Assembly: GCA_965217865.1 (NCBI GenBank)
Contig: CBDCJO010000002.1
Location: forward strand, 3,584,001 to 3,648,000
DNA length: 64,000 nt
From: Candidatus Latescibacterota bacterium
GTDB lineage: Bacteria; Latescibacterota; UBA2968; SICM01
Reading direction: 5' to 3'
Shown piece after piece: positions 40,355 through 44,998 of this stretch. Under the pieces are notes generated by a model. The model did not search any database. It was not told the DNA's origin and saw only the letters and a list, made by a program, of their open reading frames with translations. Positions within the stretch are counted from its first letter, which is position 1. Every line of letters begins with the position of its first letter. A program made the translations under genes and the position numbers.

Positions 40355-40684
40355 ATATTGGGGGACCCTCCAGAAAGTCGTGAATTGTTCAAAATATTGG
40401 GAATTATATACTTGACAAAGGCTATTTGCTTTATCCCAAAATGTTGAGTTTTTTGCGAAAGTTTCGCAGAATGCCCCGTCCTTTGGCCGGAGATCGTCCG
40501 ATTCGAGCGATTTCTTTACCTGATTTTTGATGTCCTGTTTCTATATTTGTCGGCATGGGGACTGCCAACAGATTGTTTGAGTAGACAGAGCCTTCATCAC
40601 TATCATGACTTTATCAAGTATATAATCACCAAAATATTCAATATTCAATGAAGTTGGGATATCCCGCCACAACCAGGTGATTAA

Positions 40685-41497
40685 ATGGACGATCACGAGA
40701 AGTTCCTGTTCGATCTGAACGGCTATCTGGTTCTGGAGAACGTGCTGACGCCGGATGAAGTAGCCGCCTGTAATCGGGCCATAGACCAGAATCCCGACCG
40801 GGTTCGCGTCCGCTCGGAGGAGCAGTCCCTCTCAGGCAAGTCGAAGGCGCTCAAGGGGAAGCAGGGGAGGGGTGATATCTGGGGGATGCTCACGTGGGCG
40901 AAACCCTGGTGCCAGCCCTTCCGGGACCTCCTGGCTCACCCGAAGATCGTACCGGTTCTGACAGAAATCCTCGGTGAGGGATTTCGGCTGGATCACCTCT
41001 ACGGCATCGCGATGGAGGCCGGATCGGAGGGCCACGTCCTTCACGGGGGCGGCACGCATAGCTACCCGATCCACCACTACGAGTGCCGGAACGAACAGAT
41101 TCGCTGCGGGCTGACCGTGGTGGCCTGGTCCCTGACCGACTGCGGCCCAGGGGACGGAGGGTTCGCGTGCATTCCCGGCAGCCACAAATCCAACTTTCCC
41201 ACCCCACCCGACGTTGCCCGCCTGGAGAGGGATCTTGGGGTTGTGAAGCAGGTTGTCGTTCGGGCGGGGTCGGCCATCATCTTCACCGAAGCCCTCACCC
41301 ACGGGACCATGCCCTGGAGAGCCAAACACGAACGGCGCTCGATCCTCTACAAGTACTCCCCGGGTCCGCTCTCCTACGCGGGTGACCATCTTCCGGAAGG
41401 CGTGGCGGAGGACATGGATGCCTTCACGCCCGAACAGCAGGCGGTATTGGAACCGCCCCACCGGATCCGACCCCGAACCGTTGAAGAGAAGAAATAA
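40685..41497 (+). CDS. Phytanoyl-CoA dioxygenase family protein
   Basis: FLFDLNGYLV, LHGG, CIPGSHK, EALTHGT. Confidence 0.88.
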   Translation: MDDHEKFLFDLNGYLVLENVLTPDEVAACNRAIDQNPDRVRVRSEEQSLSGKSKALKGKQGRGDIWGMLTWAKPWCQPFRDLLAHPKIVPVLTEILGEGFRLDHLYGIAMEAGSEGHVLHGGGTHSYPIHHYECRNEQIRCGLTVVAWSLTDCGPGDGGFACIPGSHKSNFPTPPDVARLERDLGVVKQVVVRAGSAIIFTEALTHGTMPWRAKHERRSILYKYSPGPLSYAGDHLPEGVAEDMDAFTPEQQAVLEPPHRIRPRTVEEKK

Positions 41498-41586
41498 AAG
41501 AACCTTCCCGCCAGCTCTCCCGTAAACCATTCTAATATATTGTAATTAAATTTCTTATAGAAATTAAACCCGAGGCCCCTTTTTGC

Positions 41587-41615
41587 TTGACAAATGAACA
41601 AATGTTCACTAAATT
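41587..41615 (+). promoter_or_regulatory. Sigma70 promoter with LexA (SOS) box in the spacer
   Basis: TTGACA (41587) - 17 bp - TAAATT (41610); TGAACAAATGTTCA at 41595-41608 fits GAAC-N4-GTTC. Confidence 0.8.
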
Positions 41616-41660
41616 GTAGACCCGAATAAGTGCTCAAACGTTCAGCTAAAGGGGCTGGTA

Positions 41661-42464
41661 TTGTCATCAAGGGATCTTCCGGCGAAGGAGTCATCGCCTT
41701 CAATCATACCCGGGCTTTCCGCTCACAAGGTGTCCTACCGAGAGGTGGTGAAAAGCTTTGAAGCGCCTTCGGGAAAAAATTTGTTGCTTTACGGGGACAA
41801 ACGGGTCTTCCGTCTGTCCCTCCATCTGGCCGTTCAGGCCATGGCCAGGGGAGCGACCATTGCCGTTGTGGATGGGGGAAATCAGTTTGAGGTCCACACG
41901 GTTGCGCGCCTGGCCAGGGAGCGACGCATCAACCCCGAGATTTTCCTCAACCGGATATTCATTTCACGGGGCTTTACGTGTTACCAGATGGAACAGGCCA
42001 TTACGAACCGGCTGCCGGGATTTTTGAAGCGTATCGATTCGAACATCGGGATGATTTTCGGCCTCCTGGATACCTTCTACGATGAGCAGGCACCCACGAG
42101 GGAAGTCCGAGGGATCCTTAAAAGGGTGATGAAGGCTCTGGAAAAGATGAAGAGAGAGGAACTCTCGGTTCTGCTGGCCTGCACCGAATACAAGGTCCTT
42201 CCCAGGGAAAGAAGGAATCTGTTCAAGGCCCTGAAGGAAGGGATCGACAAGGTTTATCACCTGACGGCCGACCCGGGGGGAAGTCCCAGGTCCGTCCTTT
42301 TACAGGAGTTTCCAACCAGGCATTCGCCTGGGCTTTTGCGGAAGGAGGTTGCCCCCGATGGGACGAACCGTTCCCACCTTCACGAACCTGATCGATTACG
42401 AAATGGCCAGCTGGTCGAAGTACCGACGAGGGCTTCGCAAGGAGGATCAGAGCCTATTCGATGA
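41661..42464 (+). CDS. Inactivated RadA/RecA-like ATPase (ImuA/iRadA-like)
   Basis: No intact Walker A; VVDGGNQFE, IFISRGFTCYQM, GLLDTFYDE. Confidence 0.75.
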   Translation: MSSRDLPAKESSPSIIPGLSAHKVSYREVVKSFEAPSGKNLLLYGDKRVFRLSLHLAVQAMARGATIAVVDGGNQFEVHTVARLARERRINPEIFLNRIFISRGFTCYQMEQAITNRLPGFLKRIDSNIGMIFGLLDTFYDEQAPTREVRGILKRVMKALEKMKREELSVLLACTEYKVLPRERRNLFKALKEGIDKVYHLTADPGGSPRSVLLQEFPTRHSPGLLRKEVAPDGTNRSHLHEPDRLRNGQLVEVPTRASQGGSEPIR

Positions 42465-42690
42465 TCTGTTTCGCGCTGCTAAACGCCACGTCGCTGAGAA
42501 CTTCTACATGATGCGGTCCATTCCATTCGAAAGCATCTCGATGGCGATGATGCTCGAACAGCGGAGACTGATCAAGTGTCTGGAGGACCGCGTGACAGAG
42601 CTGGATGATGCGCGGAAGGAAATTGCAAAATGGAAAGTGCAAAAGGAAGGGCCTGCCCATGTCGAATGTCATCACGGGCTGGCTGTTTGA
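42358..42690 (+). CDS. Small helical PolB2-associated protein (arCOG07300-like)
   Basis: RBS GGAGG; MGRTVPTF...WSKYRRGLRKEDQ..FDDLF...PFESI. Confidence 0.75.
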   Translation: MGRTVPTFTNLIDYEMASWSKYRRGLRKEDQSLFDDLFRAAKRHVAENFYMMRSIPFESISMAMMLEQRRLIKCLEDRVTELDDARKEIAKWKVQKEGPAHVECHHGLAV

Positions 42691-44998
42691 TGTTTATCCT
42701 TCGGCTCCGGGCACCACACTCTGGTTCATCGACCGGGAAGGCATCAAGCACCGCTGCTTCGCAAGATTCACGCCTTCATTTTATCTTTATCTGAGCGCCT
42801 CGGGGCAAAAGCGAGCGGAGGACCTTGGGGATCGTGCGCCTGCCCGAACCTCCTTTACGCGGGTATCTCGAAAGGAGCTTTTTTCCGGGAAATGGCTGGA
42901 CATCCTTCAGGTGACTGTACACGCCCCCAAGCGGTTCAGAGAGGTGGTGGCTTTTTACGAGAGGTTTTTTCCGCACTTCGCCTTTTTCAACTCGGATATT
43001 CCGGTTGCCCAGCTTTTTTTGTACGAAACCCAGCTGTTCCCCCTGGCCTTAGGGGAGTACGAAGTGGATGGCGCTGGAGAGCTCAAGGGCTGGACGGTTC
43101 ACGATTCCCGTGAAGCCGTCGAGTATGAGCTTCCCCCTCTGGAGATCATGGTGCTCCGGAACGCGAATGATTTCGTCCCTCCCAAGTACCAACCCCAGAT
43201 CCAGCTTGAGGTCTCCTACGAAGGAAAATCCTATCTGTTCGAGCACAATTCCTCCCTCGAAACCCTGGAGTCACTCAACGGACATCTCCGTCGATGCGAT
43301 CCGGATATCATTCTGACTGAGCACGGGGATGCGACCCTCCTTCCGAAGCTGACCGAACTCGCAAGGCGGCACAAGTTTCCCCTCCTGCTGAACCGAGATG
43401 CGTCAGCGGGATATGTGATCACACGGGAATCGAGTTTCTTCCAGTACGGCCAGGTCATCCACAAAGACGGCGCATTCGAACTCGCCGGTCGCTGGCATAT
43501 CGATGTGGGGAACTCTTTCACGGTGGCCGAGTCGGAGCTTGACGGCCTGTTTGAGATCATGCGGGTCACCCAGATGTGTCCCCAGAAACAGGCCCGGGCG
43601 AGCATCGGAACGGGGCTGGCCTCTTTGCAACTTTCGTGGGCACACCGGAACCGGGTCCTGATTCCATCGAAGAAACGTGAGCCGGAGGAATTCAAGTCAG
43701 CCGCAACGCTTCTAATGGCTGATCGGGGCGGGTTGATCTACCAACCCCCGAGGGGTTACCACGAAAATATCGCAGAGCTGGATTTTGTCTCGATGTACCC
43801 ATCGATCATGGTCAAGCACAACGTGTCACCGGAAACGGTCAACTGCCGTTGCTGTGAAAACAGCAACGTCCCGGAGCTGGGTTATACCCTGTGCGAAAGA
43901 CGCGACGGAATCGTGCGGGAGACCCTCAGGATGGTTTTGGAAAAACGGGCTTACTACAAAAAGATGAAAAGGAGATTCAAGGGGAAGGACGAAAAGCTAT
44001 TCCTTCGCTACGACAGGAGACAGGATGCCTTGAAGTGGATGCTGGTGACCTGCTTCGGTTATCTGGGCTACAAAAACGCCCGGTTTGGAAAGATTGAGGC
44101 CCACGAGGCCGTAAACGCCTTCTCCCGGGAAACGATCCTGAGGGCCAAGGAGATCGCCGAGGACCGCGGGTTCCAACTGGTCCACGCCATTGTAGACTGC
44201 GTTTGGCTTCGAAAGGAGCAGGCGACGGAGAGAGATTACGAGGAACTCTGCCGCATCATTTCCGAACAGGTGGGAATCGATATTTCCCTGGAGGGGATAT
44301 ACACCTGGATCCTTTTTCCGTCTTCAAAAATGGACCCTGTCTTAGCCACGGCCAACCGCTACGTGGGATGGTATCGCCACGGGGAGATGAAGGTTCGGGG
44401 GATCGAGGTCAGGCGTCGCGACACCCCCAAATTCATCAAAAAGATGCAGTCCGAGGTGCTGGACAGGATGGCAAAGGCCGGGAATAAGAGGGAACTGGAG
44501 AGGCTTTTTCCGGAGCTCCTGGGGACGGCCGGGGGATTTATCGAAGACCTTCAAAAAGGCCGGGTAAATCCCATGGAGCTGGTCCTTCGCCGGCGGGTCA
44601 CCAAGGAGGCCGACGAATACTTGAATCAGAGCATCAGCGCGGTGGTCTCGAACATGCTCGACGGGATGGGTCTACACCTTGCCGCGGGGGAGTCGATCGA
44701 TTTTATCATCATCGATCAATCCGGGAAGAGGGGAAGGGAGAAGGCCAAGCCTCTCGCACTCTATTCGTTCGAAGACGGGTATGATATCGAGAAATACACG
44801 GAGTTGGCTTTGAAAGCCCTGGAGACCCTGTTTCTTCCTATGGGCTACGACTTTGACAGGTTGAAACAGTTTTATAACCTCCTGCCCCAAAAAAGAATTC
44901 CAAGGCCAGAAGGACGTCAGTTCGACCTTTTCGATTCGAGCGCCAAACCCTCCCTGCTGAAGAATTGCAAAGTGGAAAATGAAAATTGCAGAATGTAA
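42659..44998 (+). CDS. Family B DNA polymerase, PolB2-like, degenerate exonuclease
   Basis: Motif A ELDFVSMYPSIM, motif B KWMLVTCFGYLGY, motif C HAIVDC, KVRGIEVRRRD. Confidence 0.9.
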   Translation: MSNVITGWLFDVYPSAPGTTLWFIDREGIKHRCFARFTPSFYLYLSASGQKRAEDLGDRAPARTSFTRVSRKELFSGKWLDILQVTVHAPKRFREVVAFYERFFPHFAFFNSDIPVAQLFLYETQLFPLALGEYEVDGAGELKGWTVHDSREAVEYELPPLEIMVLRNANDFVPPKYQPQIQLEVSYEGKSYLFEHNSSLETLESLNGHLRRCDPDIILTEHGDATLLPKLTELARRHKFPLLLNRDASAGYVITRESSFFQYGQVIHKDGAFELAGRWHIDVGNSFTVAESELDGLFEIMRVTQMCPQKQARASIGTGLASLQLSWAHRNRVLIPSKKREPEEFKSAATLLMADRGGLIYQPPRGYHENIAELDFVSMYPSIMVKHNVSPETVNCRCCENSNVPELGYTLCERRDGIVRETLRMVLEKRAYYKKMKRRFKGKDEKLFLRYDRRQDALKWMLVTCFGYLGYKNARFGKIEAHEAVNAFSRETILRAKEIAEDRGFQLVHAIVDCVWLRKEQATERDYEELCRIISEQVGIDISLEGIYTWILFPSSKMDPVLATANRYVGWYRHGEMKVRGIEVRRRDTPKFIKKMQSEVLDRMAKAGNKRELERLFPELLGTAGGFIEDLQKGRVNPMELVLRRRVTKEADEYLNQSISAVVSNMLDGMGLHLAAGESIDFIIIDQSGKRGREKAKPLALYSFEDGYDIEKYTELALKALETLFLPMGYDFDRLKQFYNLLPQKRIPRPEGRQFDLFDSSAKPSLLKNCKVENENCRM

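Follow-up and report, generated by a model that had tools for sequence, protein, structure and literature searches.

Genes for an inactive RadA (iRadA), a small protein (PPB2) and the family B DNA polymerase PolB2 were reported to be linked in bacteria in 2014, with lexA as part of the operon in Leptospirillum ferriphilum (PMC4104785). A 2025 study named the proteins, gave iRadA-PPB2-PolB2 as the sole bacterial gene order, found lexA enriched nearby, described β-clamp motifs and modelled 40 heteropentamers from bacteria and archaea as the 'PolB2 mutasome' (PMC11791011), an account repeated in 2026 (PMC12926913). The supplement of PMC11791011 assigns Ignavibacteria members with the motif HAIVDC to operon type 1a and includes one Candidatus Latescibacterota member. 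Damage induction and extension from mismatches or lesions are documented for the archaeal enzyme Dpo2 only, which is accurate on undamaged DNA in vitro and a poor inserter (PMC8764526). Here, we describe a cassette in a 64,000-nt stretch of a Candidatus Latescibacterota genome (G000:C2:3584001-3648000; hereafter the window, whose coordinates are used unless a genome position is given) that is, with practical certainty, an iRadA-PPB2-PolB2 operon.

Judging by its promoter sequence, the operon is very probably under LexA control, and by analogy with the archaeal enzyme its product has a good probability of acting as a mutagenic extender. Taken as a whole, we consider it likely that this is a LexA-repressed iRadA-PPB2-PolB2 operon yielding a damage-induced, proofreading-free polymerase complex that extends mismatched or lesion-blocked ends. 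The PolB2 mutasome is a published system, and the copy in this host does not amount to a new type of machine. Its contribution is evidence at the level of the operator, which would place in the SOS regulon a bacterial PolB2 operon that has no lexA gene next to it; earlier papers inferred the SOS link of bacterial PolB2 from neighbouring lexA genes. It further supplies a workable LexA box for a bacterial class without cultured members, as well as two closely related cassettes that can be compared directly and are predicted to be under unrelated repressors, and as an intact copy with a clamp motif it is a reasonable candidate for assaying the activity and mutagenicity of a bacterial PolB2 complex.

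The cassette and its genomic context

As recognised in the initial annotation, the cassette consists of three overlapping open reading frames (ORFs) on a single strand, in the order iRadA-PPB2-PolB2:

41661..42464, plus strand: iRadA ORF, 267 aa counted from the farthest TTG; start codon provisional
42358..42690, plus strand: PPB2 ORF (arCOG07300-type), 110 aa, beginning with MGRTVPTF
42659..44998, plus strand: PolB2 ORF (bacterial G2 group), 779 aa

The iRadA and PPB2 frames overlap by 107 nt and the PPB2 and PolB2 frames by 32 nt, and AGGAGG precedes the PPB2 ATG; the overlaps together with the ribosome sites point to a single message with translational coupling. The cassette is flanked by unrelated metabolic genes, of the PhyH family upstream and the CMD and PEP-mutase families downstream. 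The same arrangement was present in contigs from runs of other studies (one of which may be the source sample), so the cassette is no assembly artefact: contig X14 covers 40675-44939 with 141 differences and bridges the PhyH gene, the promoter and the cassette, contig X6 covers 40630-42644, and a third contig matched 41096-42452 with zero differences.

The AlphaFold model of iRadA (predicted local distance difference test score, pLDDT, 79) has a folded core at approximately residues 21-215, and its top Foldseek matches were Dmc1, RadA and Rad51 (E 1e-9), in line with a RadA/Rad51 ATPase core without the N-terminal helical domain. Its Walker A motif is broken, as previously noted (YGDK--RVFR aligned against YGPEGSGKTT of the host RecA), and the last 36 codons, which overlap PPB2, were modelled with low confidence. 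A Pfam scan returned no family for either iRadA or PPB2, and NCBIfam gave sub-threshold matches only. PPB2 membership is based on motif, size and position, not on the arCOG07300 profile: the start MGRT[VI]PTF, aligned from residue 1, is present at 48 of 49 related loci, the remaining one beginning with GTG, and the N-terminal MGRT arm is the defining motif of PPB2 (PMC11791011).

Compared with the type 1a PolB2 mutasome, the cassette has the same three genes in the same order, the MGRT arm, the D(K/R) and HxxxD motifs, inactivated exonuclease and Walker A sites, one subunit with a clamp motif and a link to LexA, all of which supports the module identity proposed initially. It differs in that no lexA gene adjoins it, its control being read from a shared operator, and in that the clamp motif lies on PolB2, which is the rarer place (PMC11791011).

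PolB2 lacks proofreading motifs and keeps conserved catalytic residues

PolB2 is nearest to archaeal PolB1/B3, with the first Asp of motif C replaced (HxxxD). The published marks of B2/G2 polymerases are D(K/R), an HxxxD motif C and a lost exonuclease (PMC7544198, PMC8764526). The Pfam scan detected DNA_pol_B (PF00136) only, and the best NCBIfam matches were archaeal-type PolB models (E 1e-113), followed at a distance by Pol II models (E 1e-12 or worse), all below the cut-offs. The nearest solved structures, by sequence as well as by fold, were Thermococcales PolB enzymes, and the full fold was modelled with a pLDDT of 94.

We read residue conservation from an alignment of 120 homologs. Motif A D375 and motif C D513 are invariant (120/120), K459 is kept in 119, and the D(K/R) motif before motif A, D355-R356 in the host, has D355 in all 120 and R/K356 in 112. 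HAIVDC, which had been singled out together with the CRCC cluster, corresponds to residues 509-514; H509 is found in 114/120 homologs, and none of them keeps the first Asp of motif C. The proofreading region is indeed degenerate: aligned with the host's other family B polymerase, the enzyme has substitutions at ExoI DIE and at the acidic residues of ExoII and lacks the ExoIII region, and the Pfam PolB exonuclease model matches that other polymerase with no match in the cassette PolB2. In the other enzyme (707 aa; G000:C2:4262393-4264516, L092:894-3017), the exonuclease motifs are intact, DTD is present and QLSLF lies at the C-terminus. Two further features of the cassette polymerase lie outside the catalytic motifs:

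43844..43894, plus strand: four-cysteine cluster C396-x-C398-C399-x12-C412 (CRCC = 396-399), after motif A
44918..44932, plus strand: QFDLF, predicted motif of the β-clamp-binding type, residues 754-758, in the disordered C-terminal tail

Cysteines 396, 398, 399 and 412 are each present in 102-109 of the 120 aligned sequences, and the cluster may be a zinc or iron-sulfur site beside the active centre, of a kind unreported for bacterial PolB2. The CysX motif of Pol epsilon sits at a comparable position behind motif A. This iron-sulfur motif has been called specific to Pol epsilon (PMC7544198), and the terms 'operator', 'SOS box', 'cystein', 'zinc' and 'Fe-S' do not occur in the main text of PMC11791011. 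Of 119 close homologs, 47 have a similar clamp-type motif, mostly QIPLF, within their C-terminal 45 aa; the canonical β-clamp motif is QLxLF (PMC11791011). In PolB2 representatives of ~1200-1300 aa (P0371, P0403-P0405, P0416, P0418, P0436, P0468, P0489), the match is broken near residue 466 (motif B), which points to a sizeable insert, for instance an intein.

Sulfolobus Dpo2 belongs to the same polymerase group, has the same partner genes, has lost its exonuclease and is damage-inducible. Unlike the host cassette, it is archaeal, has a much shorter exonuclease region and uses PCNA instead of the β-clamp; it is also not LexA-controlled, Orc1/Cdc6 homologs being enriched nearby in archaea. ImuA-ImuB-DnaE2, to which the cassette had been likened, and Pol V (UmuD'2C-RecA) are likewise SOS-controlled (in our case by prediction), multi-subunit damage-tolerance polymerases with a subunit of RecA/RadA fold (PMC3901139, PMC12926913). 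In contrast to both, the catalytic subunit here is of family B rather than C or Y, ImuB and UmuD are lacking, and the partner is of the RadA/Rad51 type. The likeness is one of role and not of build, since the archaeal enzyme is an extender that is accurate on undamaged DNA (PMC8764526). Membership of the ImuA-ImuB-DnaE2 group was rejected, as our search of the host genome gave one DnaE and one Y-family match, both outside the cassette; DnaE2 or a second Y-family gene was not found there. The single Y-family (DinB-like) gene is located at G000:C2:477051-478223 (L166), and a 13.5-bit site 230 nt upstream of it is not promoter-registered and therefore doubtful.

The promoter carries a predicted LexA operator

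Upstream of the iRadA ORF, we identified the following elements:

41587..41615, plus strand: predicted sigma-70-type promoter TTGACA-17-TAAATT, 10/12 consensus matches
41595..41608, no strand assigned: predicted LexA operator TGAAC-AAAT-GTTCA (TGAACAAATGTTCA), occupying the -35/-10 spacer
41631..41644, no strand assigned: second, weaker candidate LexA site downstream of the -10 element, 13.7 bits, rank 31

The promoter reads TTGACA-AA-TGAACAAATGTTCA-C-TAAATT, with TTGACA at 41587-41592 and TAAATT at 41610-41615, which places the palindrome between the two hexamers as originally described. The host genome encodes one intact LexA, at G000:C1:228967-229596, and one intact RecA, and the nearest named proteins to the former are from Candidatus Handelsmanbacteria (76%) and from genomes labelled Latescibacteria or Gemmatimonadota (60-65%). 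A box of the same kind is present in the same register, and within the same layout, in the host lexA promoter (TTGACA-AA-TGAACTCATGTGCA-G-TATATT) and the host recA promoter (TTGACA-TA-TACACTTTTGTTCA-G-TATATT). The same palindrome at all three promoters makes it likely that LexA keeps the operon off until damage occurs. Of the observations that the initial annotation would have counted against its reading, a box missing from the lexA and recA promoters and a polymerase of the proofreading Pol II kind were both not borne out.

It is position and recurrence at lexA and recA that make the palindrome significant, and not the bare motif. GAAC-N4-GTTC has 115 matches genome-wide, and we rejected its count as evidence because it is at chance level in the window (2 versus 1.33 expected; 34 of 100 shuffles reach 2). 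By comparison, of the genome's 156 promoters of the strict form TTGACA-17-TANA(T/A)T, only five have ≤2 mismatches to the palindrome in register, namely those of the cassette (0 mismatches by construction, as its own palindrome was the probe), lexA, recA and a radical-SAM gene, plus one that no recognised ORF follows. As an independent test, we scanned the 6.43 Mb with a matrix trained only on the lexA and recA spacers of relatives (36 spacers from the same class, chosen by position alone). The cassette site ranked first in the genome (18.4 bits), followed by those of the radical-SAM gene (3), recA (8) and lexA (14), and these four head the list of 577 promoter-registered spacers. Across six training variants, the main cassette site ranked 1, 1, 2, 39, 1 and 17; the rank of the second site at 41631-41644 varied from 24 to 599, which makes it uncertain. 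Neither this site nor the QFDLF motif had been picked up in the initial annotation. Among the relatives, the box was in register at 30/30 lexA loci (the best 30 loci out of 39/41 genomes with a match), 27 of them with ≤1 mismatch, compared to 12/1500 random upstream regions.

The class consensus is TG(A/C)AC-N4-GT(T/G)CA, a Latescibacterota LexA box for which we found no description in the literature searched (most subscription journals lay outside the search). Its GTGCA half-site presumably resembles the LexA box of Fibrobacter succinogenes. The initial annotation had called the box Gram-positive/Chloroflexi-type. This holds for the GAAC-N4-GTTC core and its spacing, which the host box shares with CGAAC-N4-GTTCG of B. 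subtilis and S. aureus (PMC9578287, Table 1), but not for the outer bases (T...A), for the GCAC/GTGC half-sites, which are as common as GAAC/GTTC, for the TA(C/T)AC half at recA or for the host, which is Latescibacterota-related. The LexA box of Balneolaeota is an unrelated direct repeat (PMC7739468).

Several other sites and genes were noted along the way. The radical-SAM gene behind the same LexA-type promoter (G000:C2:4874773-4875623, L091:545-1324) is one that we take to be SplB-like. The promoter with a two-mismatch box in register at G000:C2:2040629 (L089) is not closely followed by any same-strand ORF of ≥60 aa; it could possibly serve a small protein or RNA. A second lexA-like gene, in two frames and without a box (G000:C2:1834842-1835439; L002, L003), adjoins recombinase-like and primase-like ORFs (labelled by eye), and the region is probably a mobile element. 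Many of the relatives G003-G039 (family f2) have two full-length recA genes, and the divergent copies often have a degenerate box or none. A dispersed palindromic repeat of ~26 bp, of which 11 copies were seen (G000:C1:23448, 344403, 345210; C2:2007802, 2031103, 2354070, 2619828, 3835157, 4435365, 5016331, 5731075), has a core matching GAAC-N4-GTTC; it resembles repetitive extragenic palindromes and lies outside the promoter register. A second dispersed repeat with at least 14 copies scores 13.0 bits with the LexA matrix (e.g. C2:4922266, 4601931, 4508943, 5462609 and C1:138563).

Most related cassettes carry a different predicted operator

Our PPB2 search of 168 genomes of the phylum found the protein in one only, the host itself, and PolB2 matches in 60 relatives had only 22-31% identity. 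The nearest named PolB2 homologs, at 56-69% identity, are from Ignavibacteria/Bacteroidota, whose cassettes have the same MGRTVPTF start; the order iRadA-PPB2-PolB2 was found at 46 of 63 related loci (L005-L067). In our tree, the host PolB2 is nested among the Ignavibacteria/Bacteroidota proteins (support 100/99). Close polB2 homologs at L015, L019, L027, L034, L036 and L039 have >2 kb upstream with no iRadA match, and are possibly split operons.

Unlike the host cassette, those of Ignavibacteria/Bacteroidota carry the palindrome ACGACA-N4-TGTCGT directly behind TTGAC (34/46 loci) and, at 27/46 loci, a gene for an HTH_3+S24 (phage-CI-type) repressor (e.g. L155:1495-2145 and L156:1495-2148, both on the minus strand). 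This palindrome was also present upstream of the repressor gene itself in 4/5 genomes examined, and it was not found upstream of recA in 5/5 Ignavibacteria genomes (best 3-5 mismatches). LexA above the family cut-off was absent in 4/5 examined Ignavibacteria-type genomes, and an ortholog of the HTH_3+S24 repressor was not found in the host. The host-type box is absent from most of the closest orthologous cassettes: the only instance among the 46 lies 435 nt upstream with two mismatches, and we took it as chance. No description of the Ignavibacteria operator was found in the literature searched, and the text of PMC8565304 contains no occurrence of 'Ignavibacteri' or 'PolB'.

The same three genes hence seem, from their upstream sequences, to stand under different predicted repressors in two lineages. 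Sequence comparison makes it likely that the cassette was gained horizontally, and the different operator in the closest cassettes suggests a regulator swap after the transfer; we compare this predicted change to imuABC, which has likewise been reported as coming under LexA after acquisition (PMC3901139). The composition of the cassette is host-like (GC 53-55%; GC at third codon positions, GC3, 0.63-0.69 versus 0.67 ± 0.07), and no sign of recent transfer was found in GC or GC3. No empty insertion site was available for comparison, since matches to the CMD-family gene downstream, found in five relatives, reach only 24-27%. We lean slightly towards a broader view in which the PolB2 mutasome is a travelling plug-in SOS module that changes its master switch on arrival. 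A CI-type self-cleaving repressor and its ACGACA-N4-TGTCGT operator would have been dropped and the cassette rewired to the host LexA through the best-scoring box of the genome, and bacterial PolB2 may in addition carry an unreported Cys zinc or iron-sulfur site.

Proposed mechanism and alternative readings

In the mechanism that we propose, the cassette would have arrived by horizontal transfer, with an Ignavibacteria/Bacteroidota-type pool as the simplest source, and then come under the host LexA. Upon damage, RecA filaments would trigger self-cleavage of LexA, as in the standard SOS response, and the spacer would be freed for sigma-70 RNA polymerase. Published models of homologs predict a complex in which PolB2 and iRadA are each present once and PPB2 three times; one of the MGRT arms would reach into the vicinity of the active site, and QFDLF would tether the complex to the β-clamp. 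By comparison with Sulfolobus Dpo2, PolB2 would serve as an extender after another polymerase has inserted opposite the lesion, thereby fixing mutations. With one DnaE and one Y-family gene in the host, the DinB-like enzyme would be the obvious candidate inserter.

Several observations weigh against this reading. Since Dpo2 copies undamaged DNA accurately and inserts poorly, mutagenicity would depend on the partner. Motif B of PolB2 lacks the usual Asn and Tyr, in addition to the missing first Asp of motif C. Regarding the operator, the cassette site drops to rank 2-39 when the four spacer columns are ignored or when the matrix is trained on recA only, and the 30/30 lexA loci are not 30 independent events because the relatives are kin. 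At the relatives' recA genes, only 14/29 loci have the box with ≤2 mismatches, compared to 179/1500 random upstream regions; many of the misses are more divergent copies (62-69% identity), while all 11 loci closest to the host recA (71-88%) have an in-register site with ≤3 mismatches. An iRadA match is missing at 17/63 related loci, 11 of which end early upstream, and six of which have >2 kb upstream. In an approximately unbiased (AU) test, an Ignavibacteria/Bacteroidota clade without the host protein was not rejected (p = 0.107), which leaves donor and direction of transfer unproven; the tree for this test comprised 16/50 full-length locus proteins spanning the first tree plus six outgroup rows (LG+G4), and our PolB2 trees took in bacterial loci and representatives only. 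Finally, the initial annotation was not aware of any characterisation in bacteria. This has to be corrected in that the operons were reported in 2014 (PMC4104785) and modelled in 2025 (PMC11791011), but no wet-lab study of a bacterial PolB2 member was found in the literature searched.

The alternative that survives best, though we regard it as unlikely, is an active operon under LexA control whose task is the accurate filling of gaps, or restart, following damage instead of mutagenesis. The high fidelity of Sulfolobus Dpo2 on undamaged templates and its poor insertion opposite lesions (PMC8764526) would fit such a role, and we found no bacterial mutagenesis data in the literature searched. The loss of all three exonuclease motifs, however, argues against it, as does the failure to detect DnaE2 or a second Y-family gene in the host.

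Considerably less probable is a catalytically dead PolB2 within a complex acting as a scaffold or fork-binding regulator. This older reading of the family, raised as a possibility in PMC4104785, draws on the missing residues of motifs B and C, yet it is difficult to reconcile with the invariant D375 and D513, the near-invariant K459 and the confidently modelled full fold, and archaeal members with the same HxxxD motif C are active (PMC8764526). We give just as little credence to the idea that a regulator other than LexA binds the palindrome, or that the site is fortuitous or vestigial, with the operon outside the SOS response. While the chance-level frequency of the bare motif, its occurrence in the ~26-bp dispersed repeat and the different operator of the closest orthologous cassettes could be cited for it, the box recurs in the same register and near-identical at the 30/30 relatives' lexA loci, at recA and at the radical-SAM gene and ranks first with the independently trained matrix, and no ortholog of the Ignavibacteria repressor was found in the host. 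A proofreading E. coli Pol II-type (G1) enzyme or a contaminant cassette has next to no probability: many homologs are labelled 'DNA polymerase II' in databases, assembly contamination is 9.3% and the cassette was not found in relatives, but the exonuclease motifs and the DTD motif C are absent, the Pol II models match poorly, promoter, GC and GC3 are host-like, and contigs X14 and X6 from other studies bridge the PhyH gene, the promoter and the cassette.

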